Source: a virus (lineage: Duplodnaviria > Heunggongvirae > Uroviricota > Caudoviricetes). Taken from it: DNA of 31,217 bases. Made by a program: the position numbers and the translations under genes. Below, piece after piece: positions 2,917-31,217 of this stretch. The stretch lies in IMG/VR virus record IMGVR_UViG_2698536549_000026; one strand, 5' to 3'. The notes below the pieces were generated by a model that made no database searches, had not been told where the DNA came from, and was given only the letters and a program-made list of their open reading frames with translations. The number at the start of each line of letters is the position of its first letter. Position 1 is the stretch's first letter.

Positions 2917-2927
2917 GGTGCCTCCGG

Positions 2928-7660: not shown

Positions 7661-9843
7661 CCCGCGTAAAGCTCCGTCCATTCATCCAGTTGCCCCGGCG
7701 TCATCGGGTTCTGCGTGTTGATTGTCAGATTGCCGAACGTCCGGCTGTTGTCGATACGGGTTGAGGTGTCCGTGCGTATCTGGTTGCGTATGCCTCCGGG
7801 TGGCAGCTCTGCGCTGATGCGGTTGCCTGCCAGTGCCGGGACGGCGGTTTCTGCAATCTGCGGAGGTACGGTGCTGCCTGTTGCGCCCCGCGTCATGGTG
7901 TTCACCTGCTCCGTGGGCTTCATGTCGATACTGATACCGGGGATTTTGTTCAGCTTTTCCGCAAGCCAGTTCCACGTCCGGTTAAACGAGTTTTTAATGA
8001 CGTTCCATAAGTCCCCGAAGACGTTACCGATGATCCCCGCCATTTTCCGGAAGGATTCGACCGGGGCGGTCGGGTCAAATGCAGCCACCACGTCCTGCCA
8101 CCCTCTGATGACGATGGCGAAGATGTCGATCAGGGTTCTGATCACGCTGATAACCACCTCCAGCGCGGGGGATATCAGGCTTACCGCTGCGGCCACCACG
8201 CGACCGCATGTTTCCCCGGCACGGGTGACGCTGTTCATCTGTCCCGTGGTCAGCTGTACCGGTGCAAACAGATCGGAGAAGGCACTGAACAGGGTTTTTA
8301 TGCCCTGCCATACCGGGGCCAGCGCCCGGGCAATGTCACCGAACGCGGCAGTCACCGGGCTCATGGCGTCCAGTGCGCTGGTAAAACCATCAATAAAGCC
8401 GCGAATAAAGGCTTTGATGGGCTGCCAGAACTTAATGGCCACCACCACCAGAGCAGCGATGGCGGCGGCAACCAGGAGGACCGGGGCGCTCATGGTCAGA
8501 AACGACACGCCCGCCAGACGCGCGGCAAGACTGGTGGCAATGATGGCACTGCGTACTTTTGTGAGTGCAAGCGTGTACAGACTCCAGGCTGCCCTGGCGC
8601 CCTTTATGATGGCCTTATGGCCTTCCATGATGAAGCTGAACACACCCAGCACGATGTTCGTGACCGCACCGGCTGCGCCCAGCGCCAGCATGGTCAGCGT
8701 GATGTAACCCAGCCAGCGGGCGATGTTCGGGAACATGTTCAGCCAGCGCACGAACGTCGCGCCGATATCGGCAAAACGGCCAGCCAGTGGTGCGAGAATG
8801 GGGTAGAGGGCGTTACCGATGGCGGCCCGGATGTTGTAGAAGGAGGCCACAAGGCGGTCCCACGGGTCGGTCATGGCTTCCGCCATTTCCGTGGCACGCT
8901 TCATGCCGTCATTACGCCCCAGCGCTGATATGCTCCGGTTAAGCATTTCCTGCTGTCCCCAGAGTTTTTTAATCACGTCCGCGCCACTGCCGAAGGCGTC
9001 ATCCAGCGCCTGTTGTGCCGCCACGTTACCCTCAATGTTCCTGCCGAACCTCGCCTGCAGACGGTCGAGGATGTCACCCATGGGTAAAATCTTCCCGGTG
9101 GCATCGACAAAACTCATCCCCATTTTTTGTGCGGCAGCGGGGGCACTGCGCAGGAATTCCTCATAGATGCCCGATGCCTCGGTGCCCATGGTCCGTGACA
9201 GGGTGCCCAGTATGGCAAACTGCTCTGCCATGCTGACGCCAAAATCCGCGCCCGCGTTTTTGGTGCCCTCAATAAGCTCCTGCATGGTGCTCATTTCCAC
9301 GCCGAACTGCTGAACCATCCACGCGGTTTTACCTGCCAGATCTTCAGCAAACCCCACGGCACCCATGGCAGAAAACTCACTGCGGAAACGGGCACCCATG
9401 GCGGCAAGGTAGCCGCTCGCCTCTTCGCTGCTGACGCGGGCAGCCACGGCCAGGGTGCTGGTTGCTGCCGTCACACGGGGTAAATCCCCGTCGCTCAGTC
9501 CGTCCAGTGCGCCGCGAATATGCCATGCGGAACGGATGATCTCCGTGGAAGACTGACCGAATGCGGTCCCCAGTTTCATGGCCTGCGTGGTGAGGGCGGT
9601 CAGCGCCTGCGCCCCGACGCCTTTGGCCTCAAGCTCGCCCAGCGCCTTCTGCATCTCCCACGCCGGATCCATCGCGGCGCGGATACCTTCGGCCACGCCC
9701 CACAGTCCGGCCACACCCACACCGATACGCGCGAACGCGCCCTGCGAGCGTTCGGCGAATCCCGTCACGGATTCCTGAACCTGCCGCAGCGGGCGGGTAA
9801 GCTGGTCTGTCAGATTGATAATGAAATCCAGCTGGCTGGCCAT
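7657..9843 (-). CDS. tail tape measure protein
   Basis: 728 aa, Ala/Gly-rich with a long predicted helical N-terminal part and hydrophobic segments (e.g. ITLTMLALGAAGAVTNIVLGVFSFI). Directly downstream of the frameshifted chaperone. Confidence 0.85.
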   Translation of the reverse strand: MASQLDFIINLTDQLTRPLRQVQESVTGFAERSQGAFARIGVGVAGLWGVAEGIRAAMDPAWEMQKALGELEAKGVGAQALTALTTQAMKLGTAFGQSSTEIIRSAWHIRGALDGLSDGDLPRVTAATSTLAVAARVSSEEASGYLAAMGARFRSEFSAMGAVGFAEDLAGKTAWMVQQFGVEMSTMQELIEGTKNAGADFGVSMAEQFAILGTLSRTMGTEASGIYEEFLRSAPAAAQKMGMSFVDATGKILPMGDILDRLQARFGRNIEGNVAAQQALDDAFGSGADVIKKLWGQQEMLNRSISALGRNDGMKRATEMAEAMTDPWDRLVASFYNIRAAIGNALYPILAPLAGRFADIGATFVRWLNMFPNIARWLGYITLTMLALGAAGAVTNIVLGVFSFIMEGHKAIIKGARAAWSLYTLALTKVRSAIIATSLAARLAGVSFLTMSAPVLLVAAAIAALVVVAIKFWQPIKAFIRGFIDGFTSALDAMSPVTAAFGDIARALAPVWQGIKTLFSAFSDLFAPVQLTTGQMNSVTRAGETCGRVVAAAVSLISPALEVVISVIRTLIDIFAIVIRGWQDVVAAFDPTAPVESFRKMAGIIGNVFGDLWNVIKNSFNRTWNWLAEKLNKIPGISIDMKPTEQVNTMTRGATGSTVPPQIAETAVPALAGNRISAELPPGGIRNQIRTDTSTRIDNSRTFGNLTINTQNPMTPGQLDEWTELYAG

Positions 9844-11129: not shown

Positions 11130-11881
11130 CAGTCACTCCTCTGTTCCGTCCCCGTAAGACGCGCCTGTGCCACGCTGAAATAGTGGGCGTTCAGTTCAAT
11201 ACCCGTAAAACGGCAGCCCCGGCGAAGGGCGGCCACGCCCGTGGTGCCGGACCCCATAAACGGATCGAGGATCAGCCCTCCGGGTTCACACACGCGCACA
11301 AGCTCATCCATCAACGATTCCGGTTTACCTGTCGGGTGCTGTTTCTCCTGTGGGCGTGTGTGGTGCGTGATGCAGCCGTCGAACGGCCCGGAAGGGGATT
11401 TGCCCAGCGCGCCTTTACTGCCCCAGACCACATATTCGCACTGGTGACGAAAATAACCGGTATGCGGTGTTCTTGAGGCCCGTCCCTTGTTCCATGCCAC
11501 GATCCCCCGCCAGTTAAAGCCGGCGGCCTGGAATGCGTCCGTCAGCGCGGGCAACTGCCGCCAGTCGGTGAAGACCAGGGCGTAACCACCGGGTCGTACC
11601 GTGCGCCATGCCTGTGTCATCCACAGATGCGTCCAGTATTCCCATGAACGGGCGTCCATGTTCTCGCCTTCGAAGCCTTCAAAGCGGTGAAGATCTTCAT
11701 CGTTGATGTATTTGGCGTGGCTGCCCTGGCATGTCCGCCCCGCCTTGTGTGTGGCACCTGAACTGTATGGCGGGTCTGTGATGAGCGCGTCCACACTGTT
11801 TTCCGGCAGCATCCGCAGAACGTCATGCGCCTGCGCGTGATACAGGCTCAGGGAAGGCGAAATGTAAGGCTTATGGGTCAT
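11129..11881 (-). CDS. DNA methyltransferase, beta-class amino-MTase (N6-adenine or N4-cytosine)
   Basis: 250 aa. Catalytic DPPY motif near N-terminus (ALITDPPYSS), AdoMet-binding FxGxG motif near C-terminus (LDPFMGSGTTGVAA). Motif IV before motif I indicates the beta permutation. No adjacent restriction endonuclease gene. Confidence 0.85.
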   Translation of the reverse strand: MTHKPYISPSLSLYHAQAHDVLRMLPENSVDALITDPPYSSGATHKAGRTCQGSHAKYINDEDLHRFEGFEGENMDARSWEYWTHLWMTQAWRTVRPGGYALVFTDWRQLPALTDAFQAAGFNWRGIVAWNKGRASRTPHTGYFRHQCEYVVWGSKGALGKSPSGPFDGCITHHTRPQEKQHPTGKPESLMDELVRVCEPGGLILDPFMGSGTTGVAALRRGCRFTGIELNAHYFSVAQARLTGTEQRSD

Positions 11882-12176
11882 TTCTGCGTTCCTTCTGCTT
11901 CAGGTAGCGGTCTGCCAGACGGCAAAAGCATTCTTCAATAAAGGCGCTGCCCATAATGCCCAGCGCGCACGCCAGACCGACCACTACCAGCTCCGGCATG
12001 TCCGGAAATTTAAACAGCGGAATGGCGGCAACCGGTGCCACGGCAGAGCCCATAATCATTCGCCCGATAAGCAGACGGGCTGTGATGCGATCGCGGCTCA
12101 CCATGAGACGCCCCAGCCCGATGGCAGCACCGATGATAATCAGTTTTGCCAGGAGTGAAGTCTGACCGTCCGGCAT
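11871..12176 (-). CDS. putative holin (three predicted TM segments)
   Basis: 101 aa with hydrophobic stretches LLAKLIIIGAAIGLGRLMV, IMGSAVAPVAAIPLF, LVVVGLACALGIMGSAFI and a charged C-terminus. First gene of the lysis cluster. Confidence 0.55.
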   Translation of the reverse strand: MPDGQTSLLAKLIIIGAAIGLGRLMVSRDRITARLLIGRMIMGSAVAPVAAIPLFKFPDMPELVVVGLACALGIMGSAFIEECFCRLADRYLKQKERRNDP

Positions 12177-20336: not shown

Positions 20337-21385
20337 GCAAGAAACGCAGAAACAAAACGTCACGCGTGACGAAAAAAGCATTCACGCCCGCACGTGGCAG
20401 CACAATCACGTTTGGTCAGCCGGAACCGGTGCTGACCACCGGCACGGACTACCATAACATCTGGTATGACAACGAACACAACCACTGGCAGCTGCCGATT
20501 AACCGCCTGGCACTGGCGCAGCTCCCGAACCTTAACGCCCAGCACGGTGGGGTGCTGTATGCCCGCCGTAACATGGTGGCGGGGGGCTATACCGGTGGTG
20601 GCCTCACAACGGACCAGATGGAACAGGCGGTATTTGACTACCTGTTGTTCGGCGATCTCGCCCTGCTCAAGGTGCGTAACGTATTCGGCGACGTCGTGGC
20701 ACTTGAGCCGCTTCCGTCGCTGTATCTCCGGCGCCGCAAAACCGGTGAGTTCGTGGTGCTTCAGGAAGGCCCCGCGCTGGTCTATACGCCGGAAGATATT
20801 ATCTTTCTGCGGATGTATGATCCGCGTCAGCAAATTTACGGGCTGCCGGATTATATCGGTGGCATTCACTCGGCGCTGCTGAACAGCGAGGCCAGCCTTT
20901 TTCGTCGCCGTTACTACAACAACGGGGCGCATATGGGGTTTTTGCTGTATACGAACGACCCGGGGATCACCACGGAGATGGAGGATGAGATCCGCGAGAA
21001 GGTGGCGGAGTCTAAGGGGCTGGGAAATTTCCGCAATCTGTACATCAACATCCCCAAAGGTTCGCCGGATGGGGTGAAAATTATTCCGATTGGTGAGGTG
21101 AGCGCCAAGGATGAATTTTCAAACATCAAGGGGATCAGCGCCCAGGATGTGTTTACGGCACACCGCTTTCCTGCCGGTCTTGCGGGGATCATCCCCACGA
21201 ACGGGGCCACCATCCCTAACCCGGAAACGACGCGTGAAACGTACCGCAAGGATGAGGTGATACCGCTTCAGCGTAAAATCATGAACTCCGTGAACAGCGA
21301 TCCCGATATACCGGAACACCTTTATCTTCGTTTTGATGCAGACGCCGGGCATGTGGCGGAAGAAAAAGTGGTGCCGGTCGGGTAA
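20333..21385 (+). CDS. Q: portal protein, P2 gpQ family
   Basis: ORF track gives 20312..21385. ATG at 20333 (MSKKRRNKTSR...) forms an ATGA overlap with the P stop. Size about 350 aa and position fit gpQ. Confidence 0.9.
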   Translation: MSKKRRNKTSRVTKKAFTPARGSTITFGQPEPVLTTGTDYHNIWYDNEHNHWQLPINRLALAQLPNLNAQHGGVLYARRNMVAGGYTGGGLTTDQMEQAVFDYLLFGDLALLKVRNVFGDVVALEPLPSLYLRRRKTGEFVVLQEGPALVYTPEDIIFLRMYDPRQQIYGLPDYIGGIHSALLNSEASLFRRRYYNNGAHMGFLLYTNDPGITTEMEDEIREKVAESKGLGNFRNLYINIPKGSPDGVKIIPIGEVSAKDEFSNIKGISAQDVFTAHRFPAGLAGIIPTNGATIPNPETTRETYRKDEVIPLQRKIMNSVNSDPDIPEHLYLRFDADAGHVAEEKVVPVG

Positions 21386-21422
21386 AATGTCCTCCCCGGG
21401 ATACACGTTATCGGGAGGTAAG

Positions 21423-21686
21423 ATGCGGATTTTTAAAGCCCGGTGTCCGGACTGTGGCGCACCTGCTGTCATCCGGAAGACAGACTGGAAAACCCCTGAA
21501 CTTGCGGATCTGTACTGTGCATGCAGTGATGTCGAATGCGGGCATACCTTCGTCTGTACGATGACCTTTTCCCATACCCTCAGCCCCGGCGCCCGCTCCG
21601 GTCGCAATATGGTGAAGTTTCTTGTTGATGCCATGTGCCCGGAAGATCGCCGGTATGCGCTTGAACTACTGTCGCGGCGTTCCTGA
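21423..21686 (+). CDS. ogr: Ogr/Delta-family zinc-finger late transcription activator
   Basis: 87 aa from ATG at 21423 (GGAGG 8 nt upstream). MRIFKARCPDCGAPAVIRKTDWKTPELADLYCACSDVECGHTF carries the C-x2-C-x22-C-x4-C spacing diagnostic of Ogr. Confidence 0.85.
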   Translation: MRIFKARCPDCGAPAVIRKTDWKTPELADLYCACSDVECGHTFVCTMTFSHTLSPGARSGRNMVKFLVDAMCPEDRRYALELLSRRS

Positions 21687-21712
21687 CGCGCTTCGCTTGT
21701 CTGCTGCTTCGC

Positions 21713-21737
21713 CGGGGCAAAAAGAATTTTTGCCCCG
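21713..21737. terminator. perfect 11-bp inverted repeat (CGGGGCAAAAA-gaa-TTTTTGCCCCG) between convergent ogr and early operon
   Basis: Read directly. Sits in the 65-bp gap between two convergent transcription units. No clean U-tract on either side, so terminator function is inferred only. Confidence 0.35.
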
Positions 21738-21751
21738 ACTCACCAGCTCCT

Positions 21752-22078
21752 TTAACGGAATGCAGCGCCGTAGATAAACAGAATTCGCTTCATGATTTCG
21801 CTGCGCTTGCAGGCTTCGATGACTGATTTTTCCTGCTGCTGTTCAGCCCGTTGCGCCAGTTCCTGTCGTTCCTTTTCCGTTGGCTTCCGGTAATGCGTTA
21901 TCTTGTCCGTGTACCCGTCCACAACCAGCAACCCTTCCCGTACCATTTTTCCGGCGGCCTGATTAATGACGGTTCTTTTCACGCCCAGTTTTTCTACCAG
22001 TTCTGGGGCGCTGAAACGTGCGTGCGTTTCCAGGTAGCGTAAAATGATTTCCTTTCCGGTCATTCCTGGGGTCTTCAT
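21752..22078 (-). CDS. small winged-helix-like DNA-binding protein, last gene of the early operon
   Basis: ORF track gives 21752..22147. ATG at 22078 has AGGAG upstream and an ATGA overlap with the preceding gene, giving 108 aa. Segment KEIILRYLETHARFSAPELVEKLGVKRTVINQAAGKMVREGLLVV looks like a winged HTH. Confidence 0.5.
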   Translation of the reverse strand: MKTPGMTGKEIILRYLETHARFSAPELVEKLGVKRTVINQAAGKMVREGLLVVDGYTDKITHYRKPTEKERQELAQRAEQQQEKSVIEACKRSEIMKRILFIYGAAFR

Positions 22079-22245
22079 TTGGCGGCTCCTTCGTTGTTCC
22101 GGCGTTCCCGGAGTTCGGTCAGTGCTGCCAGTAAATTCTCCCACCATGTTTCTTCCACGACCGGGTTTTGTCGTGAAAGCAGCTGCTGCGCCGACTCAAT
22201 CATTTTCGTAAGCTCTCTGTCGCTGATCCTCCTGGTGCTGTTCAT
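22075..22245 (-). CDS. small hypothetical protein (about 57 aa)
   Basis: ORF track gives 22075..22284. In-frame ATG at 22245 has AAGGAG 7 nt upstream. Charged, helical-looking. No recognisable family. Confidence 0.4.
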   Translation of the reverse strand: MNSTRRISDRELTKMIESAQQLLSRQNPVVEETWWENLLAALTELRERRNNEGAAK

Positions 22246-22293
22246 GGTGCGCTCCTTTAGTTGGCTGTTTCTGGTTATGTTCATGGTCTTTGT

Positions 22294-22698
22294 TTACCTG
22301 CGTGATTGTCTGCCAGCGGCTGAATGCACATAGCGGGCAATTGCCGCTTTGCGGTTAATCGATGCCAGTGTTCTGGTCAGTTCTGCGTTGTGTTTGTGTG
22401 CCTGCTCTTCGTGGTACTGCCGCATGATTTTTCCGGCAGGCGTGAGCGGCTCCGGCTCTCCGGGCGGACGGCGCGGACGAACGGCGACAAGCCAGCTGCG
22501 GTTGGTGCTGTCCGGTCGTCCGTTGAGTATGTCGGTGATGATGGCCGTGGTGGTGCGATCGGGACTGACGACCGTGATTTCCAGCTCATCGCCCGGTTGT
22601 GGCCCCGTGGCAATGTTGTTCAGGGTCAGTAAGGGCGTGCGCTGGCGCATCATTTCGTCAAAACGCTGGCGCTGCATGGCGCAATAAAAGCGGGTCAT
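22294..22698 (-). CDS. hypothetical protein translationally coupled to replication gene A
   Basis: 134 aa. ATG overlaps the A stop (ATGA at 22695-22698) with GGAGG 8 nt upstream. No recognisable motif. Confidence 0.5.
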   Translation of the reverse strand: MTRFYCAMQRQRFDEMMRQRTPLLTLNNIATGPQPGDELEITVVSPDRTTTAIITDILNGRPDSTNRSWLVAVRPRRPPGEPEPLTPAGKIMRQYHEEQAHKHNAELTRTLASINRKAAIARYVHSAAGRQSRR

Positions 22699-25223
22699 TG
22701 TGGCGCCTCCGTATTCGGTGCGGGGGTGATATCAATGCGGCGGGTGCTGTCATTCCAGTACGCGGTGCGTCCGTCAGCCAGGCGCACGCGGGCACCGTGA
22801 CGGACGGAAACGACGGCGCTTTCATGCAGCTGCACGCCCAGCGCATCAAGCTCGCGGGTGATTTGTGCGGTGATGTGTGGCTCAGCGGTCAGTGCGACAC
22901 TCACGCGAACGCCGCCAGCGGACGCACTGATGCCGCCGTTTTTCACGGTTTCCGTGTCAGGTTGCGGGTTTTTCAACTGCCTGGTGAGTTGTTTTCGCTC
23001 TGTGGGGGTCAGTGACCTTAACCATTCACCCAAATCACCTTCCGGCAGGGTAAGTCGCTGCTCCCTGCGTCCGTCCGGCTGCCTTTCTGGCGGGTCGTTT
23101 ATGGTCAGATTCTGGTCAGGGGGACAGTTATTGCCACGAGTCCAAGGTGCGGCAAAGCCGCACTCAACGTCAAAACCCTCGTCCGTGCGGTCTTCGTTTT
23201 CCGGCTTACGTCTGACCAGTTTCCAGGTGTCCGGGTGGGTGCATATGGTGTAGCGCTCCCCGAGTGACGGGGCGCGGACGCCGTAAATGCGTTGCGGGAA
23301 TTCGCCGTAGTCGTTGGCCTCTTCGGCAGTTTCGTATGCGGTGCGGACCAGGTACGTGTTGCGGGGAATGAGCACACCACCCTGGCGGGTGATATAGGTG
23401 GCAAAACATCCCACGTCGGCGGCGGCCAGTATGGCGTCAATGTCGTCATGGTCCAGACGCTGCGGGGCAGCCGGGTTACGGGCCATTTGCCCGGCAAGAC
23501 GGCGGAGTTCGCGCCATACCTGGCGGGGAGGGATACCGAAGAACTGGAACTGGTGGATGCGGTGAAGGCCTGCCCAGCCGATGGCGTTCTCCACGGTTTC
23601 GGCCATGGTTTTGCCTGATTCCTTATCGACGTAAGGTTTGCCGGTTTTCGGGTCATTCCCCATGAAGGTGCTGGCGTCCAGGTTCTTACCGATATAGGTC
23701 GCGATATAGCTTGTCGGTGTGCCTTTTGCCGGGTCGATTTTTTTGCATTTAAAACGCGGGGAGATATCATCACCCAGCTCTGCGCGGTCCTCCCTGATGG
23801 CGGCGTTGCGCATGATTTCAGTGATACGGGCTTCGTTTTCCTGGCTGGTGAATACCAGCATGTGCCAGTGCGGTGTACCGTCGTGGTGGGGCTCCACGGT
23901 GCGCACGCCGTACCAGCCCAGCCCGGCCTTGTCGATGGCCCTGCGGACGGCGGCGAAAAAGCGGTAAACCAGATAATCACTGGCATCGCGTACCGTTGCT
24001 CCGCAGTATTTCGGGTTCAGGCTGCCGTCATCGTTCACGCTGTGAAAACGGGAAGGGGCTGTGACGGTGACGAAAAACGCCACGTCGCCGCGTGCTTCGG
24101 CGACCTGCTCCATTCCCCGGGCGCAGGTCATCATCTCGTTACGGCGGTTACGCGGATTAGAGAGACCTGCCCAGTAGATATCCTCAAGGCTGAACCGTTC
24201 TCCCTCTTCGTTCTCGATGTCCCAGGCCTTCAGAAAATCGCGGGTGCGCTGGCGTTTTTCGCGCCAGTCCAGTAACGCTTCATGGCTGATATATACCGAT
24301 GTCTTACGTGACACCAGACCTGCGGCGCGTAACAGTTCTTCACGCCAGATGTCCCGGAGGTGTCTTAACTGACTGTTCCACCATGTCGCACAGGAAAGGC
24401 GCATGACCGCACCCGGCACCCGTTCCGGGTCGGGGTCGGTGCGGCGGTCGGGCCTGATTTCCAGCGACGGCCAGCAGGGTGGCGTGATACCCAGTTTTAA
24501 CGCCATGTGTGCCAGTGGCTGGTAGGTCAGTAACCAGGTGAGCAGGTCATCGTCACCCCTGCCGGTCTTTTCGATGACTTCATCACATGCGCGCTCCAGT
24601 GCGGTGGAAAACGCGGTGGCGGTCAGGGTGGCAAGGCGCTGGATTTCGTCACGGCTCAGCTGTGGCAGCATAAGCAGTTCATCCAGCCGTTTGCGCGCGG
24701 CGGTGGCCTTAAAGGCCGGGGTGGCAAAGCGTTCATTCACACGGGCGATACGTTTCAGGCGGGCACGCAGCCCGTGACGAACGAAGTTATCCGCCGCATA
24801 TGCGCTGTTATTCTTAAGCCCTTCCCGGCGTGCGCTCTCCTGTTTGCGGCTCAGGCGCGCCAGGTCACGGATGAGCGGACCGGCAAGAAACGGCGGCAGG
24901 GCGCGCAGCTCTGCCATGGCTTCAGATACCAGTGTTGGCGGATTCTCGTGTTTGTGCCGCGCCAGTTTTTCCAGCCTGATCCGACGCTCTTCGTCGTGGT
25001 AAAGATGCGAATTAATTCGCTTCCCTTCGTCTGTGGTTGTCAGGAAGGCGACGGTTTCTTCATCCAGTCTGGCGTCAGTGCGAATATCCTCGTTGATGTA
25101 GCTCTGAATGGCCTGGCGTAATGCGGTTGGCTGCGCTCTGCCGAACGTTTCAGGATCGATAACCGGTAGCGGGGCGTTCCACGGGTACGCCAGTTGTGCA
25201 TTATGGTCGCTCATGCGTCGCAC
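22695..25223 (-). CDS. A: replication initiation protein (P2 gpA family rolling-circle endonuclease)
   Basis: 842 aa. Contains HUH-type motif (TPHWHMLVF) and catalytic-tyrosine region (TSYIATYIGKNLD) characteristic of the P2 A family. Confidence 0.9.
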   Translation of the reverse strand: MRRMSDHNAQLAYPWNAPLPVIDPETFGRAQPTALRQAIQSYINEDIRTDARLDEETVAFLTTTDEGKRINSHLYHDEERRIRLEKLARHKHENPPTLVSEAMAELRALPPFLAGPLIRDLARLSRKQESARREGLKNNSAYAADNFVRHGLRARLKRIARVNERFATPAFKATAARKRLDELLMLPQLSRDEIQRLATLTATAFSTALERACDEVIEKTGRGDDDLLTWLLTYQPLAHMALKLGITPPCWPSLEIRPDRRTDPDPERVPGAVMRLSCATWWNSQLRHLRDIWREELLRAAGLVSRKTSVYISHEALLDWREKRQRTRDFLKAWDIENEEGERFSLEDIYWAGLSNPRNRRNEMMTCARGMEQVAEARGDVAFFVTVTAPSRFHSVNDDGSLNPKYCGATVRDASDYLVYRFFAAVRRAIDKAGLGWYGVRTVEPHHDGTPHWHMLVFTSQENEARITEIMRNAAIREDRAELGDDISPRFKCKKIDPAKGTPTSYIATYIGKNLDASTFMGNDPKTGKPYVDKESGKTMAETVENAIGWAGLHRIHQFQFFGIPPRQVWRELRRLAGQMARNPAAPQRLDHDDIDAILAAADVGCFATYITRQGGVLIPRNTYLVRTAYETAEEANDYGEFPQRIYGVRAPSLGERYTICTHPDTWKLVRRKPENEDRTDEGFDVECGFAAPWTRGNNCPPDQNLTINDPPERQPDGRREQRLTLPEGDLGEWLRSLTPTERKQLTRQLKNPQPDTETVKNGGISASAGGVRVSVALTAEPHITAQITRELDALGVQLHESAVVSVRHGARVRLADGRTAYWNDSTRRIDITPAPNTEAPQ

Positions 25224-25627
25224 TCCCCGGCAGTCGCCGCCTGAAACGCCGCGCGGTACAGCACGAGAAGGCGCTGGTATTCACCGATAAAGTCTTCTGC
25301 GGTGTATATACCTTTCACGGCCACGCTGTGGTTTGTCATTTCCAGAACAAGCGTCATCTCTGACGACGACCAGCTGATGGCGGTGCTGTCGGTTCCGTTG
25401 ATGTGAAATAAACCAAAACCATCACCATCACCTTTCACGTCCACGCGGTAACGGTCGTCAACGGTGAAGGAGAAATCCCCGTATGTGGTGACGCGTCTGG
25501 TGGCCTGTTTACAGGCGCGGCGGTAATAGTCGTGCCAGTCGTTCAGGCGGGAAGCCAGCCGGGGATCCACTGCCCACATCCAGTTAAAAAAGTCCTGAAT
25601 ATCTGAAAGTCCCTTAACGCTCTTCAT
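25211..25627 (-). CDS. hypothetical early protein immediately upstream of A
   Basis: 138 aa. ATG at 25627 has GGAGG about 7 nt upstream. Overlaps the A start by 13 nt. Function unknown. Confidence 0.5.
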   Translation of the reverse strand: MKSVKGLSDIQDFFNWMWAVDPRLASRLNDWHDYYRRACKQATRRVTTYGDFSFTVDDRYRVDVKGDGDGFGLFHINGTDSTAISWSSSEMTLVLEMTNHSVAVKGIYTAEDFIGEYQRLLVLYRAAFQAATAGECDA

Positions 25628-25695
25628 GAGAACCTCCGGTAACAGACGTGCGGAAGCCTCCCGCGCACGGGTGCGGGATGGCTTCAGGATGTTGT

Positions 25696-25923
25696 TTAGT
25701 GGTGGTGTTGCTGGTTGATAAGGTCCTGCAGTTCTGCCAGGTCTTCGGCCAGATAGCTGAAGACTGCCGCGTAATACCCGGCAGCGATACCATCGTTAAG
25801 TCGATGTAATGCGTTTGACTGCATGATGAAGGTGACAGATGCAGCCCGATGGAGTCTGCGGTTAATTTCAGTGCGGATGTGAAGACGCTCAGCGCGGGCG
25901 CGCTGTTGTTTGCGGTTTGCCAT
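25696..25923 (-). CDS. hypothetical small basic protein
   Basis: 75 aa. ATG at 25923 has AAGAGG upstream. Arg-rich N-terminus, ends in HHH. Confidence 0.4.
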   Translation of the reverse strand: MANRKQQRARAERLHIRTEINRRLHRAASVTFIMQSNALHRLNDGIAAGYYAAVFSYLAEDLAELQDLINQQHHH

Positions 25924-25999
25924 GGTGTTTGGCCTCTTGTAGTAAGTTCTGAAAACTCACCAACCCGAGGTTCCAAGCTCAGGGTGGCGAGACGTACAG

Positions 26000-26152
26000 G
26001 GTTGGAACTACCGGCTACAAGAGATCCCGGCCCGACCGAAGTCGGCCCCGTACGCCCCGCCATAATTCTGACGCGAAAAAGACGTGGCGATACAGTACGC
26101 ACAAAAAAACCGCTGGCGCGGTTGTGCGCTCTTGTAGTCGGCGGGGTTCCAA
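26000..26152. repeat. inverted repeats of a two-part motif (CTCTTGTAG-N6/7-GGTTCCAA) flanking about 105 bp, with a third partial direct copy at 25934-25976
   Basis: 26002-26023 TTGGAACTACCGGCTACAAGAG is the reverse complement of a near-copy of 26129-26152 CTCTTGTAGTCGGCGGGGTTCCAA. Both half-motifs recur at 25934-25942 and 25969-25976. Lies in a 320-bp non-coding gap. Confidence 0.6.
26102..26123 (-). terminator. intrinsic terminator-like hairpin on the minus strand inside the early operon
   Basis: Minus-strand sequence AACCGC-GCCA-GCGGTT followed by TTTTTTT (revcomp of 26102-26123). Downstream of the 184-aa gene, upstream of the 75-aa/138-aa/A genes. Confidence 0.5.
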
Positions 26153-26243
26153 TCCCGGCACCCGTTTTATGAGGTGCGGGAAAACTGTAACCCGACCAGG
26201 CGAACGCTGGCAAGCGGTTTTTTTGTGTGTGCATGATGATCAC

Positions 26244-26798
26244 TCAGTCCGGTAACAGTTCACAGAGCACTGCGTCAGTTGCGGTGCGGCGGTGGTAGAG
26301 ATGAAACGCCGCATCGTCGTTAATGTGCATCTGTATCGTGCTGTTGATGTGTTCAGCGATCATGCAGAACGTCATGTTGTGTATGTCGCGTAGCTCCGTG
26401 ACCAGCTCAACCAGATGATCGCTGTATCTGGCGCAATGGTGGTTCTCACCGCATTTTTTCAGGTTGTAACCCCGTTTACGCAGTGTGTACCTCACTGTGC
26501 ACTCACTGCATCCCACTTCCAGAGCCATTTCCTGTGCGGTTTTTACATGACGGTTTTTAATAAGAAAGGCTATGGCTTCTGTACTCAGTGGTGCTTTTCT
26601 CTTGCGGCCAATCAGCCCACGATTACGTAAAAAACGAATCCGGTACATAACTGCTTTACGGGTTCGCTGAATTCGTTCAGCCATCTGATGTGTGTTGTGT
26701 TCCTGATAAAGCGAGATGAGTAACCGATCTTCCTGCTGTGTCCACGCCTTCACATGTGCCGGGGCTTTGCCCGGTATTCCCATTGGTGTAAGTCTCAT
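26244..26798 (-). CDS. putative DNA-binding protein with two HTH-like segments
   Basis: 184 aa with two segments resembling HTH/region-4-like motifs (THQMAERIQRTRKAVMYRIRFLRNRG and AQEMALEVGCSECTVRYTLRKRGYNL). Early-operon position. Family uncertain. Confidence 0.45.
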   Translation of the reverse strand: MRLTPMGIPGKAPAHVKAWTQQEDRLLISLYQEHNTHQMAERIQRTRKAVMYRIRFLRNRGLIGRKRKAPLSTEAIAFLIKNRHVKTAQEMALEVGCSECTVRYTLRKRGYNLKKCGENHHCARYSDHLVELVTELRDIHNMTFCMIAEHINSTIQMHINDDAAFHLYHRRTATDAVLCELLPD

Positions 26799-26824
26799 CG
26801 CGATAACCTCCGTTACTGTTCCGG

Positions 26825-27037
26825 TTATTCGGTCGGGTTCAGGGTGTAATCAATGGCGTTTTCAATACGGCGTTTAAGGTCCCGGTGGATCTCACCTGGT
26901 GTTACTGGTGCGCCCGGACCGCTCAGCGTTGCCGTGAAGTCGTCGATTTCCTCCAGTAACAGATTGCGGAGTACGGCGATGTGGTGGCGTGCGTCTTTAC
27001 CGGGTTTACGTGCGTTGGTGGTGTACTTGCTGATCAT
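26825..27037 (-). CDS. hypothetical small early protein
   Basis: ORF track gives 26825..27076. Internal ATG at 27037 forms an ATGA overlap with the upstream gene stop, giving about 70 aa. Confidence 0.4.
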   Translation of the reverse strand: MISKYTTNARKPGKDARHHIAVLRNLLLEEIDDFTATLSGPGAPVTPGEIHRDLKRRIENAIDYTLNPTE

Positions 27038-27291
27038 GGCCGCAGCTCTCCGTGGGCTTGTGTTTCTGATTTCCATGCCCCTCTGATGGTCATTACTTCG
27101 CGAACGGTACTGGCAATCGCGGTGATTTGTGTTCCGTCAGCCAGATGGATGTAGAGATAATCAGCGTCTGACGGGCACGGCGTGGTCGTTGTGATCAAAT
27201 GACTTTCCACCATGAACTCGTGGCCCACGGCATCGGTGAAACGCGTCAGCATGGTGGCGGTAAATATGCTGTTCATCGACCTGCCCCTCAC
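27034..27291 (-). CDS. hypothetical small early protein
   Basis: 85 aa. ATGA overlap with the upstream gene stop at 27288-27291. Confidence 0.4.
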   Translation of the reverse strand: MRGRSMNSIFTATMLTRFTDAVGHEFMVESHLITTTTPCPSDADYLYIHLADGTQITAIASTVREVMTIRGAWKSETQAHGELRP

Positions 27292-27566
27292 GCTGAAAAC
27301 TGGCCGGACTGTGCCCGGAGTTCTGCCAGTTCGCGCTCGAGGCGCAGGTTTTTCATATAGAGTTCACTGATGGTCTGTTTTGCTGTCACCATTGCCATGC
27401 TTTGCATTTGCAGGGCCATGTAAGTAGCAAAATGCTTGTCTTTATCTATTTCTGATATTCTTTCATCCAGTACATTGGTTATTTCAGTCAGCGTTTTTTG
27501 CGTCAATTCAATATGCGCCGGGTCGGTAAATAGTTTGTTTATTTCTGTAGGTGTATTGGTGCTCAT
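27288..27566 (-). CDS. hypothetical small early protein, predicted coiled coil
   Basis: 92 aa with heptad-like C-terminus (ELYMKNLRLERELAELRAQ). AT-rich region. Confidence 0.4.
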   Translation of the reverse strand: MSTNTPTEINKLFTDPAHIELTQKTLTEITNVLDERISEIDKDKHFATYMALQMQSMAMVTAKQTISELYMKNLRLERELAELRAQSGQFSA

Positions 27567-27645
27567 AGCTGTTTCTCCGTTTCTGGATTGAGTGAAGCCC
27601 TCCGCAGATGCGGATGGTTTTAATGTTTTCTGTCCGGTTGGTTAT

Positions 27646-27771
27646 TTATTTACGGCGTTCTTCGCCAGTAAATAAAGATTCGATATTTTTCAGCGCTTCG
27701 ATAATTCGCATAATGCCAATCGCCATAAGCACGGAAATAATCAGAATCACCCATGAAAGAAATACGCTCAT
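27646..27771 (-). CDS. small single-pass membrane peptide (41 aa), not in the ORF track
   Basis: Translated by hand: MSVFLSWVILIISVLMAIGIMRIIEALKNIESLFTGEERRK. ATG at 27769-27771 overlaps the stop of the 80-aa gene (ATGA). Hydrophobic N-terminal helix, charged tail, stop TAA at 27646-27648. Confidence 0.4.
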   Translation of the reverse strand: MSVFLSWVILIISVLMAIGIMRIIEALKNIESLFTGEERRK

Positions 27772-28010
27772 GCTGCATTCCCAAGTGCGTATGGCTCAAT
27801 ATGTACTCCGCATTCTGCATCACGAACAAGCTCAGACAGCTCATTGAGAGCATCCAGATCGTCAGCGTAAAAAGCTGCGTCATACAGGCTGCGAATTGCT
27901 CTGGTCAGTGAGTCTCTTGCTGCATGTTCTGCGGCAACTCCTGACATACTCAGGCGAAAGTTAAAGCGCTCAAGGGCTTTATTGATGAGAACCTTATATT
28001 CTTTGTCCAT
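27768..28010 (-). CDS. hypothetical small early protein
   Basis: 80-aa ORF, co-oriented in the early operon. Confidence 0.4.
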   Translation of the reverse strand: MDKEYKVLINKALERFNFRLSMSGVAAEHAARDSLTRAIRSLYDAAFYADDLDALNELSELVRDAECGVHIEPYALGNAA

Positions 28011-28030
28011 TGTATTTCCCCGGAAAACAA

Positions 28031-28285
28031 TTAAACAAAATCGCTTAATGATTTACCTGATTCAATCTTCTCTATCGTGTCTTCAATAGCCATGTATGCG
28101 GCGTAATCGCCTGCGAGGTCGGCGCATTTCTGTAGCCCCTGTAATGCGCTGATGATATCTTCTTTTGCTTCCCATAAAGGTTTTGCTGTATTTAGTGCAT
28201 TACGGGCATTATTAGCTATGAGCCGGTGTATGATAATTGTGTAGGCTGATGCTATCTCTGCCATGTCTTTTGTCGTTGTTGCCAT
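28031..28285 (-). CDS. hypothetical small early protein
   Basis: 84-aa ORF, co-oriented in the early operon. Confidence 0.4.
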   Translation of the reverse strand: MATTTKDMAEIASAYTIIIHRLIANNARNALNTAKPLWEAKEDIISALQGLQKCADLAGDYAAYMAIEDTIEKIESGKSLSDFV

Positions 28286-28288
28286 GTA

Positions 28289-28675
28289 TTAATTCCCCCA
28301 TGGATGCTGAAAACTGCGACCGCTGATTAACCGGTCTGCCGTTCTTAATGCTTCGTGCAGGGTGAAATCCTGCCCGAACTGCTCATCTCCGCGAGTCAGG
28401 GAGTAACAGGTATTTCCGGTAATCGGGTTGCGTGCGCCTCTGTGTATGACAATTCCGGCATCATTAATCAGCCAGGTGTGTTTACCGGTTTGTTTAACCG
28501 GATGCCCGTCAGGTGTGGCGTGCGTTTCCTGCAGGCTATAGTGCGTGTTGCTGCGTGATGCACTGGTTGAGAAACGGGCTGCGTGGCGTTCTGTGCCAGT
28601 GCGGAAGTTGCGTCGCTGTGTCATATCGGAAAACCCGCTTAAGTTAAAAGAATTGAAATAACGGTGTATTGGCAT
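28289..28675 (-). CDS. hypothetical early protein
   Basis: 128-aa ORF. Start abuts the stop of the preceding gene. Confidence 0.45.
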   Translation of the reverse strand: MPIHRYFNSFNLSGFSDMTQRRNFRTGTERHAARFSTSASRSNTHYSLQETHATPDGHPVKQTGKHTWLINDAGIVIHRGARNPITGNTCYSLTRGDEQFGQDFTLHEALRTADRLISGRSFQHPWGN

Positions 28676-28906
28676 TTATGCCCAGTTGTCTTTTCTTATT
28701 ACTGTTTCATTCTGAAATCCTGTCTGCTCCATTGCATTTTTTAAGGACTCTTCTGTTTCAAATGTCACAACGATGCAATGGGTCGGGTAATGGAAATACA
28801 AATCGTTGCCAGCCCGAACAATGGCATCTAAGTTCTGATTACAGATTATTACTGAAGCGTCGTCGCTTATTTTTATTCTTTGTCTGATTTCCGTGTGTTT
28901 AATCAT
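28676..28906 (-). CDS. hypothetical small early protein (position of P2 orf78)
   Basis: 76-aa ORF immediately downstream of the cox-like gene, AT-rich. Confidence 0.45.
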   Translation of the reverse strand: MIKHTEIRQRIKISDDASVIICNQNLDAIVRAGNDLYFHYPTHCIVVTFETEESLKNAMEQTGFQNETVIRKDNWA

Positions 28907-28936
28907 CTTGCCCCTCCAATGATTGCCAGTTCTATA

Positions 28937-29362
28937 TCACGCAGCTTTTTTACTGATGCGTTTATTCCGTGAACCAGCTGCTGGCTTAAATAAAAAAAGT
29001 CGGTTTTCCCATTCGTGCCATTCTTGCGGTGCGTTTTCAGTGAGTCGATCGCAGGCTTCATCCCACGCTTTCCGGTTGATGTAGAGTTCGGCGTTTCCGC
29101 CAGGCTTGAGAGGGTCCGCCATGTACACAGCGGGTAATTTCCCTGCTTTTGCCATGCTCACGATGGCGTCAACGGTCTTGCCGATATACATCGCAAACCC
29201 TTCTTTTGACAGGAGATGAGAAGGGTTTTGTGAAAGCCTGATTTCCTGGCGTTCAGGGGCTTTGCGCCCGGTCTTTTGGTGTGCGGTTTCTGGCGCATCT
29301 GTCAACTGATCGCACTGTGTTTCGGCAGGCGATTCAGGCGCGTTTTGAGTGACTTCTTGCAT
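28937..29362 (-). CDS. cox: Cox-like excisionase / early transcriptional regulator
   Basis: ORF track gives 28937..29401. ATG at 29362 has GGAGG 8 nt upstream, giving about 141 aa. Segment FAMYIGKTVDAIVSMAKAGKLPAVYMADPLKPGGNAELYINRKAWDEA resembles P2 Cox (FAKLIGKSTGAVRRMIDKGKLPVIDMTDP...). First gene of the early operon, divergent from the repressor. Confidence 0.6.
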   Translation of the reverse strand: MQEVTQNAPESPAETQCDQLTDAPETAHQKTGRKAPERQEIRLSQNPSHLLSKEGFAMYIGKTVDAIVSMAKAGKLPAVYMADPLKPGGNAELYINRKAWDEACDRLTENAPQEWHEWENRLFLFKPAAGSRNKRISKKAA

Positions 29363-29477
29363 CTGGTATCCTCCGTTATTGGTGCTATTTCTATCTGGCA
29401 CTAGTTGGAACCACTTAGAACATTTCTTTTTATGTTCATATGTGGTATTAATCTACACATATGTAGGAGTTTGTCAA
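29363..29477. promoter_or_regulatory. immunity switch region between divergent cox-like and repressor genes (promoters/operators)
   Basis: 115-bp gap. Contains repeated CACTAG/CACTTAG elements (29399-29418) and palindrome CATATGTG-N11-CACATATG (29437-29463) centred on TATTAAT. Confidence 0.55.
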
Positions 29478-29744
29478 ATGGACATTCCTCAAAAAATTCG
29501 CGTCATGCGTAAATCTGAAGATCTCACTCAACGGGAGTTCGCTGATATGATTGGAATTTCTTACTCTGCTCTGACCAGTTATGAGTATGGTCGTAACCTT
29601 CCTGGTCTTGAGATCACTATCAAGCTTTTTAAGCACCCGAGATTTTCTAAATACCGAGACTGGTTTTTGTTCGATGAGGTCGAACCAAAGGCCGGACAGG
29701 TGGTGCCGGCTCTCGCACACATTGGGCAAAGCGAAGCTGAATAG
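29478..29744 (+). CDS. C-type immunity repressor paralogue, C-terminally truncated (88 aa)
   Basis: ORF track gives 29349..29744. ATG at 29478 has AGGAG upstream. MDIPQKIRVMRKSEDLTQREFADMIGISYSALTSYEYGRNLP...FSKYRDWFLFDEVEPKAGQVVPALAHIGQSEAE-stop. C-terminal 35 residues nearly identical to the downstream repressor, N-terminal HTH half divergent. Confidence 0.75.
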   Translation: MDIPQKIRVMRKSEDLTQREFADMIGISYSALTSYEYGRNLPGLEITIKLFKHPRFSKYRDWFLFDEVEPKAGQVVPALAHIGQSEAE

Positions 29745-29855
29745 TCCATCTGATACCCTCCGTTATTGGTGCTATTTCTATTAGCACTAGTTAGAGCCGC
29801 CTAGATTGTCTCTGGGTGTGTTTATTGATGCATAAACTAAGAGAGTTAACTTACT
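29745..29855. repeat. duplicated copy of the cox-proximal promoter/operator/RBS segment, between the two repressor genes
   Basis: 29748-29808 (CATCTGATACCCTCCGTTATTGGTGCTATTTCTATTAGCACTAGTTAGAGCCGCCTAG) is a near-copy of 29359-29420 (CATCTGGTATCCTCCGTTATTGGTGCTATTTCTATCTGGCACTAGTTGGAACCACTTAG). Confidence 0.7.
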
Positions 29856-30155
29856 ATGTCAACTAACGTAGGTGAAAAAATTAGAATCATGCGTAAGTCT
29901 GAAATGCTTACACAAGAAAAAATGGCTGAAATTACAGGGCTCACGGTAGCGGCCCTGCGTCAATATGAGCAGGGGAGAAATGAGCCAAATCTTGAATCCA
30001 CAAAAAAGCTGCTCAAGTCTCCCGTCTTCCGTAAATACCGTGACTGGTTTTTGTTCGATGAGGTCGAACCAAAGGCCGGGCAGGTGGTACCGGCTCTCGC
30101 ACACATTGGGCAAAGCGAAGCGGAATCATCCCACTCCGGCAAGAAGACTGGTTAA
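29856..30155 (+). CDS. C: immunity repressor, P2 C family
   Basis: 99 aa, MSTNVGEKIRIMRKSEMLTQEKMAEITGLTVAALRQYEQGRNEP...PALAHIGQSEAESSHSGKKTG. Closely parallels P2 C along its whole length (MSNTISEKIVLMRKSEYLSRQQLADLTG...PALAHFGQNETTSPHSGQKTG). Confidence 0.85.
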   Translation: MSTNVGEKIRIMRKSEMLTQEKMAEITGLTVAALRQYEQGRNEPNLESTKKLLKSPVFRKYRDWFLFDEVEPKAGQVVPALAHIGQSEAESSHSGKKTG

Positions 30156-30221
30156 CGGTCCATCTGGCCTTTATTTCTCAAAATTGTGATCAAGATGATG
30201 TTTTCATTGGGGGGCTTCCTT

Positions 30222-31217
30222 ATGTCGATTAAGAAGCTCGCTGATGGCAAATACTGTGTGGACGTGCGGCCTGCTGGATCTGAAGGAAGAAGATTTCGGC
30301 GGCGATTTCCTACCCGTGGTGAAGCGGCGATGTATGAACGCCATGTTCTGACGCATTATCACGATAAGGACTGGGTCGAAAAACCTATTGAACGTAAAGC
30401 GTTAAGCGATCTTCTGGAACTGTGGTGGGTGTACCACGGTAAGAATCATCGTTATGGCGCGATGAATCGGGTCAGAATTGAAGCGGTTCTTCGTGATATG
30501 CAAGAGCTTGGTATTAACAGAAGTGACCACTTAACCCGAAAAAATATTATCAGATATCGCCTTGAATTAATGAATCGCGGAATTAAGCAGTCAACGGTAA
30601 ATCGTTATTGTGCAATGATGAGCGGTTTCTTTGAAAAGCTGATTGATGTTGAAGAGTTTGTGGGTGATAACCCGTTTCACGAGATACGCAAGCTAACAAT
30701 TAATCAGCCGGAAATGGCTTATCTTGCACATGATGATATTCCCAGGCTAACCGCACTTTTATCTGGCGATAATCTTAAGGCTGTATTGTTAAGCTTGGCT
30801 ACAGGCGGGCGCTGGGGTGAAGTTGCCAATATTAAAGGTGAACACATAATTGGTGGGAAGGTTATTTTCATGGAGACAAAGAATGGATCGCGGCGGGTTA
30901 TTCCTATAGCTAAAGATCTTGAATCTCTGATTAAAGTCAAAGCGACGGGAAGATTAATGAACCCCAGTTATGCGATAGTCAGAAGTGCAATAAGGACTGT
31001 GCGGCCTGATTTACCAGTCGGTCAGTCTGTGCATGTTTTACGGCACACATTCGCAACTCATTTCATGATTAATGGAGGGAACATTATTACCCTTCAGCGT
31101 ATTTTAGGGCACAGCACAATTCAGCAGACAATGACCTATGCGCACTTTGCACCTGATTATCTCCAGGACGCGGTAAGGTTCAATCCGGTTGCGGAGTTGT
31201 CCAGATTTTGCCCATAA
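30222..31217 (+). CDS. int: tyrosine integrase (P2 Int family)
   Basis: ORF track gives 30186..31217 from a GTG. ATG at 30222 gives about 331 aa. C-terminal catalytic region HVLRHTFATHFMINGGNIITLQRILGHSTIQQTMTYAHFAP with conserved R...HxxR...Y. Stop at 31215-31217, so attP/attR lies just beyond the window. Confidence 0.9.
   Translation: MSIKKLADGKYCVDVRPAGSEGRRFRRRFPTRGEAAMYERHVLTHYHDKDWVEKPIERKALSDLLELWWVYHGKNHRYGAMNRVRIEAVLRDMQELGINRSDHLTRKNIIRYRLELMNRGIKQSTVNRYCAMMSGFFEKLIDVEEFVGDNPFHEIRKLTINQPEMAYLAHDDIPRLTALLSGDNLKAVLLSLATGGRWGEVANIKGEHIIGGKVIFMETKNGSRRVIPIAKDLESLIKVKATGRLMNPSYAIVRSAIRTVRPDLPVGQSVHVLRHTFATHFMINGGNIITLQRILGHSTIQQTMTYAHFAPDYLQDAVRFNPVAELSRFCP

Follow-up and report, generated by a model that had tools for sequence, protein, structure and literature searches.

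An antisense RNA arrangement that Barquist et al. called the "IsrK-C4 immunity system" is carried by P1, P7, N15, P4, and lambdoid prophages (PMC3632133). In P1 and P7, an antisense RNA controls the anti-repressor of the primary repressor (PMC8546580), and repression in trans by the processed C4 or CI RNA is established for P1 and P4 (PMC8546580, PMC3632133). In the Gifsy-1 prophage, IsrK acts in trans to activate translation of an anti-repressor and induces the prophage, and the same study equates IsrK with the seqA region of P4 and compares STnc1160 with the CI RNA of P4 (PMC4825925). Herein, we examine a 320-bp gap at positions 25924-26243 of the IMG/VR virus record IMGVR_UViG_2698536549_000026, a stretch of 31,217 nucleotides that we call the window. 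We conclude that this gap, which lies in the early operon of a P88-like phage of the P2 family, very probably holds an antisense-RNA immunity module of the IsrK-C4 type on its minus strand. Such systems are already known from P4 seqA-CI-seqC, P1/P7 immI (a1b1-c4-a2b2), and Gifsy-1 IsrK-STnc1160, to which the module adds a further case. We found no paper describing it in P2-like phages, and both noncoding RNAs are already annotated in one GenBank record of an Stx phage.

The closest described system is the immunity region of P4 (PLE - seqA - CI RNA (seqB) - seqC - ... - epsilon - orf151 - alpha), in which the Rfam isrK model matches the seqA region and the Rfam C4 model matches the CI RNA. The gap likewise encodes two structured RNAs in tandem, which carry complementary and co-varying sequence boxes, and a further target box overlaps the ribosome-binding site of the next gene. 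An Rfam scan of the whole window gave exactly two matches above curated thresholds, both full length and both on the minus strand of the gap (positions are those of the window, and ranges written in descending order lie on the minus strand). The first is an IsrK-like RNA at 26177..26103 (RF01394, 69.1 bits against a threshold of 50, model positions 1-77), which is composed of hairpins 1 and 2 (the loop of the latter holds box b1), a single-stranded stretch with box a1, and an intrinsic terminator. Its equivalents are seqA in P4 and the a1/b1 region in P1. The second is a C4/CI-type antisense RNA at 26067..25980 (RF01695, 83.3 bits, threshold 45, all 87 model positions), with a predicted minimum-energy fold of -47.8 kcal/mol (z = -5.0). 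Its parts are a basal stem of 17 bp, the UUCG hairpin, a further hairpin whose 12-nt loop carries box a′, and a single-stranded segment with box b′. The Rfam c4-a1b1 motif (RF03163) scored below its threshold in the gap (21.5 bits versus 46.7 curated); this stretch is already covered by the passing isrK model, and RF03163 yields just 44.1 bits on P4 itself.

Both structures are supported by covariation among 11 sequences. All 27 base pairs of the C4 RNA are retained in 297 of 297 cells, and 13 of these pairs are doubly changed. For the IsrK helices, 99.4% of cells are paired and double changes occur at 7 pairs, with the terminator helix paired in every sequence and including 2 compensatory pairs. 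Control alignments in which the helices were slid gave 35-47% pairing for C4 and 32-50% when the C4 and IsrK controls are taken together. In C4, the AUG at positions 5-7 and the ACC that follows the basal stem (A83, C84, C85) are invariant. The tandem order of IsrK and C4 is kept in all 13 loci scanned. A previous examination of the DNA letters, hereafter the sequence-only reading, had listed a small RNA among its candidates for the gap, and in this it was essentially right. The minus-strand C(UUCG)G hairpin that it noted at 26045..26032 is helix 2 of the C4 RNA, and the features it described are parts of one ordered minus-strand RNA module rather than a set of repeats. Other RNA types were also considered. 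ARAGORN found no tRNA or tRNA fragment, which GGTTCCAATCC had led us to suspect, and the sole riboswitch match was to SAM-I/IV, on the plus strand and at chance level (E = 3.6).

The repeats in the gap are the recognition and target boxes of these RNAs. The sequence-only reading had reported three copies of a two-part motif, and the features that it listed are found at the positions it gave or a few bases away. The first part, CTCTTGTAG, indeed occurs three times in the window and each time within the gap, at 25934-25942 (plus strand), 26015-26023 (minus strand), and 26129-26137 (plus strand), compared to an expectation of 0.06; three copies were reached in 0 of 100 shuffles. The second part, GGTTCCAA, is exact at 25969-25976 and 26145-26152, but the third, inverted copy (26002-26009, minus strand) is AGTTCCAA with one mismatch, and the 8-mer by itself is not significant. 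One additional exact GGTTCCAA lies at 29405-29412 on the minus strand, beside the cox/C switch region, and is unrelated and probably a chance occurrence for an 8-mer. Thus the copies are real, but the motif is the recognition pair of the C4 RNA, a′ and b′, together with its two sets of targets, a relation that the sequence-only reading had missed, as it had the strand that is relevant. Box a′ (CUCUUGUAG, 26023..26015) occupies the 12-nt loop of C4 hairpin 3, and box b′ (GUUCCAACC, 26008..26000) lies in the single-stranded junction after this hairpin. In the IsrK-like RNA, box b1 (UUGGAACC, 26152..26145) complements b′ from the loop of hairpin 2, and the single-stranded box a1 (CUACAAGAG, 26137..26129) is the exact complement of a′. 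Downstream of C4, the same sequences recur as b2 (UUGGAACC, 25976..25969) and a2 (CUACAAGAG, 25942..25934). Box a2 overlaps a Shine-Dalgarno sequence, AAGAGG (25938..25933), which lies 9 nt upstream of the start codon ATG at 25923. Complementarity to C4 extends over 9 of 9 nt for a1 and a2, and over 7 nt for b1 and b2.

We compared the boxes in 15 loci from P88-like, lambdoid, and P1-like phages and P4. The pairs a′/b′, a1/b1, and a2/b2 occupy fixed positions in these loci, whereas their sequences differ and always change together. In 14 of the 15, a2 abuts a GAGG located 8-10 nt before the ATG; the exception is a Yersinia locus that lacks GAGG after a2. P4 resembles the window in having two sets of targets for the same loop and single strand, and its a2 also lies on a GGAGG Shine-Dalgarno sequence. 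Interior departures from perfect complementarity are G.U wobbles, as seen in a1 of Salmonella phage 118970_sal3, a1 of the locus F039, and both a1 and a2 of Stx131990. Therefore, pairing between RNAs fits these data better than DNA sites do. The a and b boxes also assort independently, in that a Salmonella locus combines the a box of the window with the b box of P88, and Citrobacter phage phiSM combines the b box of the window with a different a box. The boxes of the window recur exactly in five IMG/VR contigs, which are P2-like phages with gpA proteins only about 52% identical.

It might be argued that the repeats are instead iteron- or operator-like DNA sites for a co-evolving protein, such as the 184-amino-acid Myb/HTH-like protein encoded upstream or the replication protein gpA. 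The 8- to 9-mers are indeed repeated in both orientations next to genes for a DNA-binding protein and for replication, and sites for a protein would be expected to co-vary too. However, the boxes lie in the loops and single strands of RNAs with covariation support, there are only two direct copies and one inverted copy, all of them in RNA loops, and the boxes differ between the window and a closely related prophage in which the 184-amino-acid gene is 100% identical. Furthermore, the P2-type origin is annotated inside gene A, and the homologous systems have been demonstrated experimentally to operate by RNA-RNA interactions. We consider binding sites of this kind, which were among the earlier proposals, to be highly improbable.

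Least probable of all the alternatives, to the point of being hardly credible, is an inserted miniature inverted-repeat mobile element. The inverted pair that suggested this idea is present as described (26011-26023 and 26129-26141, 13 nt, 92% identity, with 105 nt between the arms), and similar sequence is found in 1,220 of 5,426 E. coli genomes. However, the arms do not mark the ends of an element but lie inside two neighboring RNA genes, their sequences vary between loci while complementarity is retained, and the inverted repeat is the complementarity between C4 and IsrK. The search for further copies gave 1-4 per E. coli genome, and in every locus that was fetched and annotated the module resides in a phage or prophage. 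Its position is the same in all P88-type loci, among which no empty site was found.

Among public sequences, the window is most closely related to E. coli prophages (97.2% identity over 1.3 kb), to phage P88, and to Citrobacter phage phiSM. One of the prophages, from E. coli N51, offers an instructive comparison. Over 1,301 nt, positions 25600-26900 of the window match 6001-7301 of the N51 locus with 97.2% identity. The 36 differences are all confined to 25744-26149, in the RNA module and the epsilon-like gene described below, with 28 of them inside the 254-nt module. The 723 nt that take in the promoter region, the 184-amino-acid gene, and sequence farther upstream are free of differences. 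Among the changes are a compensatory pair in the basal stem of C4 (26059/25988) and a single-base, three-way compensation in b1, b′, and b2 (26149/26005/25973). This pattern resembles the outcome of a cassette exchange, or of diversifying selection on immunity specificity. The specificity boxes also differ between the heteroimmune relatives P1 and P7.

The IsrK-like RNA is preceded by a candidate sigma-70 promoter (26224..26184) with a -35 element TTGCCA (26213..26208), an 18-nt spacer, and a -10 element TACAGT (26189..26184). The start is predicted near 26177, which is the first base of the IsrK model. This is the sole promoter-like site in positions 25600-26900, and in P88-type loci the hexamers and their position just before the IsrK start are preserved despite a different spacer. 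A promoter-like site is present at the equivalent position in the lambdoids, the Yersinia phage, and P4 (TTGCCT-18-TATAGT). Upstream of the -35 element, an A7 tract (26224..26218) lies at about -47 to -41; it resembles an UP element, and we presume from its position that it would fit the proximal UP-element subsite.

The same tract bears on a possible plus-strand terminator at 26201-26227, where the sequence-only reading had noted a T7 tract after a weak hairpin. The T7 run at 26218-26224 is there, but the hairpin preceding it is weak and is not kept in relatives with a different promoter spacer. The terminator scan made no call at this site, and there is no convergent gene at this location that would need termination. 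The run is better read as the A-tract of the minus-strand promoter. In contrast, the minus-strand terminator that had been noted is confirmed by the scan, with a stem at 26123..26108 followed by a T-run; the complete intrinsic terminator of the IsrK-like RNA (26123..26103) has the sequence AACCGC GCCA GCGGTT followed by T7. The accompanying idea that the gap is a regulated terminator was essentially right, as the terminator and the antisense targets lie where they could govern read-through, as well as translation, into the replication genes.

The region around the promoter contains one further repeat. A 21-nt, 90% inverted repeat links 26210-26230, just upstream of the -35 element (ACACACAAAAAAACCGCUUGC in RNA entering from upstream), with 26097-26117, such that the upstream arm (26230..26210) complements the IsrK terminator across its 3′ half and U-tract. 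For a transcript entering from the 184-amino-acid gene, the predicted fold (-61.6 kcal/mol, z = -5.3) has a long helix in place of the terminator hairpin. The arm is kept in all P88-type loci, even those with a different upstream gene, and is absent from lambdoids, P1-like phages, and P4. We speculate, on the strength of this modeled fold, that the arm might displace the terminator in transcripts initiated upstream. The proposal is speculative because the local terminator hairpin should form first.

A single long open reading frame (ORF) crosses the gap, and the possibility that it encodes a protein must be weighed against the RNA module. This ORF (26243..25614, 209 codons) is present as the sequence-only reading listed it and begins straight after the stop codon of the upstream gene. 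Its product scores 19.6 bits with Pfam Phage_ASH (PF10554), several PHROG families labeled "transcriptional regulator" match residues 18-104, and some genomes carry a PGAP call of an "ash family protein" here. No stop codon interrupts the frame in 10 of 12 loci, and the spacing of IsrK and C4 varies between groups by multiples of three (the distance between the two starts is 110 in the P88 type, 101 in lambdoids, and 185 in P4). However, the Pfam score is below the threshold of 26, and the matched residues correspond exactly to two Rfam RNA genes with compensatory changes in their helices. Variation within C4 has no codon periodicity (21/23/21 variable columns and entropies of 0.67/0.63/0.63 by codon position). 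The module of the 97%-identical prophage has +1 and -1 indels, RefSeq annotates no coding sequence there, and the ORF overlaps the entire epsilon-like gene out of frame. Thus, an Ash-family protein or transcriptional regulator encoded by this ORF is very unlikely, though not quite as improbable as DNA sites or a mobile element.

The Ash annotation itself coincides with RNA modules of this type. PF10554 matches translated RNA modules elsewhere, with scores of 59.7 bits for the old P4 "cI" ORF, 26.7 bits for a PGAP "ash family protein," and 57.4 bits for the N-terminal part of the annotated mEp460 "antirepressor." Ash-type matches were obtained at 25614-26243 (minus strand) of the window and at 8168-8584, 2448-3599, and 2879-3496 of the fetched loci L005, L003, and L006, respectively. 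PHROGs 995, 821, 6928, 29966, and 3960 ("transcriptional regulator") also match the conceptual translation of the IsrK-C4-a2b2 module. A census of P4-like satellites took PF10554 as the marker for epsilon (PMC8628076), whereas the true P4 epsilon belongs to PF25738. The consequence for curation is that the Ash Pfam family, several PHROG regulator families, and PGAP Ash calls coincide with translated RNA genes.

The genes around the gap are consistent with an immunity function for the module. The window is a P2-like prophage, and specifically a complete helper-type phage that belongs to the P88-like (Xuanwuvirus) members of the P2 family; P88 and phiSM are classified in the genus Xuanwuvirus of the Peduoviridae. 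Its integrase gene (30186-31217, plus strand) is next to a gene for a P2-C-type immunity repressor (29856-30155, plus strand), whose product is 45% identical to P2 C over all 99 amino acids (E = 8e-37). After the cox gene (28937-29401, minus strand) comes a series of small early genes on that strand, and the 184-amino-acid Myb/HTH-like protein (26798..26244) is encoded immediately upstream of the gap. Immediately downstream, the first gene that the module would gate encodes a 75-amino-acid homologue of the P4 epsilon (derepression) protein (25923..25696). It is followed by a 138-amino-acid ORF (25627..25211, phrog_3237) in the same putatively gated unit, whose 3′ end overlaps the start of gene A. 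Gene A (25223..22695), putatively the last gene of this unit, encodes the 842-amino-acid gpA replication initiator, a rolling-circle endonuclease (Pfam Phage_GPA, E = 3.5e-105). Between the 75- and 138-amino-acid ORFs is a strong, G+C-rich hairpin (25685..25653, GAAGCC.UCCCGC...GCGGGAGGCUUC) that is part of a -27.1 kcal/mol fold (z = -2.7), lacks a U-tract, and lies just 5′ of the GGAGG Shine-Dalgarno sequence of the 138-amino-acid ORF.

The epsilon protein (E) of P4 binds P2 C and is an anti-repressor (PMC2995052). The 75-amino-acid protein is 34% identical to P4 epsilon over 50 amino acids (BLASTP, E = 2e-8), and RefSeq labels its 97%-identical copy and its homologues "derepression protein." Two related loci that were found with this protein encode homologues 61-64% identical to it, and both have C4 upstream at the same spacing. 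In P88-type relatives, the module always directly precedes the epsilon-like gene. Based on these sequence relationships, the 75-amino-acid protein is likely an anti-repressor of the P2-C-type repressor of the prophage, and this repressor is its presumed target.

The comparison with P4 therefore extends beyond the RNAs. Both loci have a hairpin that presents b2, and in both an epsilon-family gene and then a replication gene lie downstream. However, P4 is a satellite, whereas the carrier here is a complete helper-type phage in which the module is situated within a longer early operon that starts at cox. The spacer between IsrK and C4 is 35 nt here versus 107 nt in P4, and the replication protein is the gpA rolling-circle nuclease rather than the alpha primase-helicase. 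In P4, another first ORF (MATTLTP...) and about 240 nt precede epsilon, whereas here a2 directly abuts the epsilon-like gene because there is no kil/icd-like first ORF. The 138-amino-acid ORF has no homology with P4 orf151.

The immI region of P1 and P7 (a1b1 - c4 - a2b2 - icd - ant1/2) has the same architecture and the same Rfam families, and the P1-like phage RCS47 has isrK and C4 matches followed by ant. The gated protein here is of the 75-amino-acid epsilon type rather than Icd/Ant, no icd-like leader ORF is present, and the primary repressor is of the P2-C type rather than P1 C1. In Gifsy-1 (IsrK - orf45/STnc1160 - AnrP) and the lambdoids mEp460, cdtI, and the Stx2 phages, the tandem precedes an anti-repressor gene, as it probably does in the window. 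The lambdoid anti-repressors are of the Rha/Ant type (Pfam Phage_pRha), unlike the epsilon type seen here, and the lambdoid spacer is 24 nt. Lambdoid spacers end in ACGCCCA, which is related to a sequence in the spacer of the window, CUGUAUCGCCACGUC. Within this spacer (26102..26068), CUGUAUCGCCACGUC imitates the 3′ strand of the basal stem of C4, and in an unprocessed read-through transcript it is predicted to form 13 bp with the C4 5′ strand.

By analogy with these systems, we propose the following mechanism. Judging from its conserved position, the promoter at 26213..26184 would initiate transcription near 26177, and most transcripts would end at the intrinsic terminator to give an IsrK-like RNA of ~75 nt with decoy boxes b1 and a1. 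Transcripts that read through, or that come from an upstream early promoter, would contain C4. Processing would then release it in the manner of P1 and P4, with RNase P generating its 5′ end; the invariant ACC after the basal stem is the one hint of this in the sequence. The a′ loop and b′ single strand of C4 could then pair with a2 and b2 in the leader of the epsilon-like gene. Because a2 covers the Shine-Dalgarno sequence, the anti-repressor would remain untranslated, and the untranslated leader would favor premature termination that is polar on the 138-amino-acid ORF and gene A, if P1 and P4 are a guide. IsrK, or a1/b1 in cis, would compete for C4, such that a high ratio of IsrK to C4 opens the gate, an effect known experimentally from Gifsy-1. 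With the gate open, the anti-repressor would be expected to inactivate the P2-C-type repressor and induce the prophage, as Gifsy-1 suggests. The box sequences would set the specificity of immunity and appear to be swapped between otherwise near-identical prophages.

Several points weigh against this interpretation. RNase P processing, repression in trans, and polarity on gene A are carried over by analogy from P1 and P4. The assignment of the epsilon-like protein relies on 0.5 bit above the Pfam threshold (27.5 bits versus 27 for PF25738, Derepression) plus one pairwise match, whereas P4 epsilon itself scores 170 bits with this family. The promoter call is a consensus match, and the number of promoter-like sites is not above that in shuffled sequences, so this count alone is not significant. 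In RNAduplex energy matrices, the cognate duplex between C4 and target is the best in every row, yet the energies separate cognate from noncognate pairs only moderately. These margins are modest because the RNAs are G+C-rich, and we used exact box complementarity as the basis instead. In addition, because C4 follows a good intrinsic terminator, its supply depends on read-through. Finally, the sign of the effect of IsrK here is uncertain because the published systems differ, with IsrK or its counterparts serving as decoy, activator, or co-terminator.

An alternative is that activation of the Gifsy-1 type is dominant. C4 would then exist mainly in cis within a translationally silent read-through mRNA, short IsrK would open this fold in trans and turn on the epsilon-like gene, a leader ORF might begin at the C4 AUG, and processed C4 would not have an important role as a repressor in trans. 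Experiments with the homologous Gifsy-1 locus support this mode (PMC4825925). Folding of the read-through RNA also predicts, at minimum energy (-113.6 kcal/mol, z = -5.3), three pairings in cis: 11 bp between b1 and b′, 13 bp between a1 and a′, and 13 bp that join the spacer to the 5′ strand of C4. In this respect the fold resembles the inactive structure A published for Gifsy-1. Moreover, the invariant C4 AUG lies within the frame that is stop-free across the module in most loci (26243..25930 in the window) and corresponds to the start of Gifsy-1 orf45. However, the frame that begins at this AUG in the window has no stop before the epsilon-like ATG and continues for 150 codons, out of frame through the gene. 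Coupling in the style of orf45 is therefore not evident. The location of a2/b2 on the Shine-Dalgarno sequence, as in P1 and P4, also argues against this mode, which we regard as a possible but less probable explanation. It is compatible with the data, and the two modes are not mutually exclusive.

An additional structure might participate in the proposed gate. The 3′ strand of the C4 basal stem can pair with a downstream sequence, GGUUGGUGAG, that mimics the 5′ strand of this stem, to form a hairpin at 25991..25956 that is followed by UUUUC (25955..25951). This hairpin (-19.8 kcal/mol, z = -3.1) has an 8-nt loop that displays b2, and it cannot coexist with the C4 basal stem. It is present in 12 of 12 loci, and 8 of its 10 consensus pairs are compensatory. 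Thus, it may be a conditional attenuator or a structure for the presentation of b2.

The tandem was found in every relative fetched, including four P88-type loci (among them P88, phiSM, and E. coli prophages), the phages mEp460 and cdtI, Salmonella phage 118970_sal3, two Stx2 phages, a Yersinia phage, P1-like RCS47, and P4. In contrast, the early regions of P2 (24500-33593) and 186 (21000-30624) gave no C4 or isrK match at E <= 1. Among the phages examined, the module is therefore present in P88-like members of the P2 family and not in P2 or 186. A nearly identical arrangement of a P88-type module and an epsilon-like gene was also seen in NZ_JBQPOM010000071.1, which is titled Vagococcus sp. 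and whose layout closely matches the enterobacterial ones; the assembly may be contaminated or mislabeled.

These findings account for a 320-bp gap that is recurrently unannotated or misannotated in common enterobacterial P2-like prophages. They also point to a probable second layer of immunity and route of induction in these phages, both of which are missing from the model members of the P2 family, P2 and 186. Since both the RNA immunity module and the epsilon gene of P4 have homologues in helper-type phages, the published statement that P4 shares almost nothing with phages (PMC8628076) needs to be qualified. The N51 prophage, which is near-identical to the window but has fully rematched boxes, constitutes a ready-made natural experiment on heteroimmunity determined by RNA. 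Going further, we tentatively suggest that the IsrK/C4 pair is the own SOS-independent switch of P88-like phages between induction and immunity, in which the ratio of the two RNAs decides whether the anti-repressor and gene A are expressed. In this broader and rather doubtful scheme, the P4 cassette would share ancestry with that of the helper phages, the exchangeable boxes would constitute a combinatorial RNA "immunity code" that permits or prevents cross-talk between helper and satellite, and the arm at 26230..26210 could permit read-through by transcripts from the early promoter but not by those from the promoter of the module itself.

Another small RNA match was encountered near the related prophage of E. 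coli N51. This prophage adjoins dmsA, and a match to the small RNA STnc130 (122 bits) lies at 11860-11994 of the N51 locus, between the integrase gene and dmsA.

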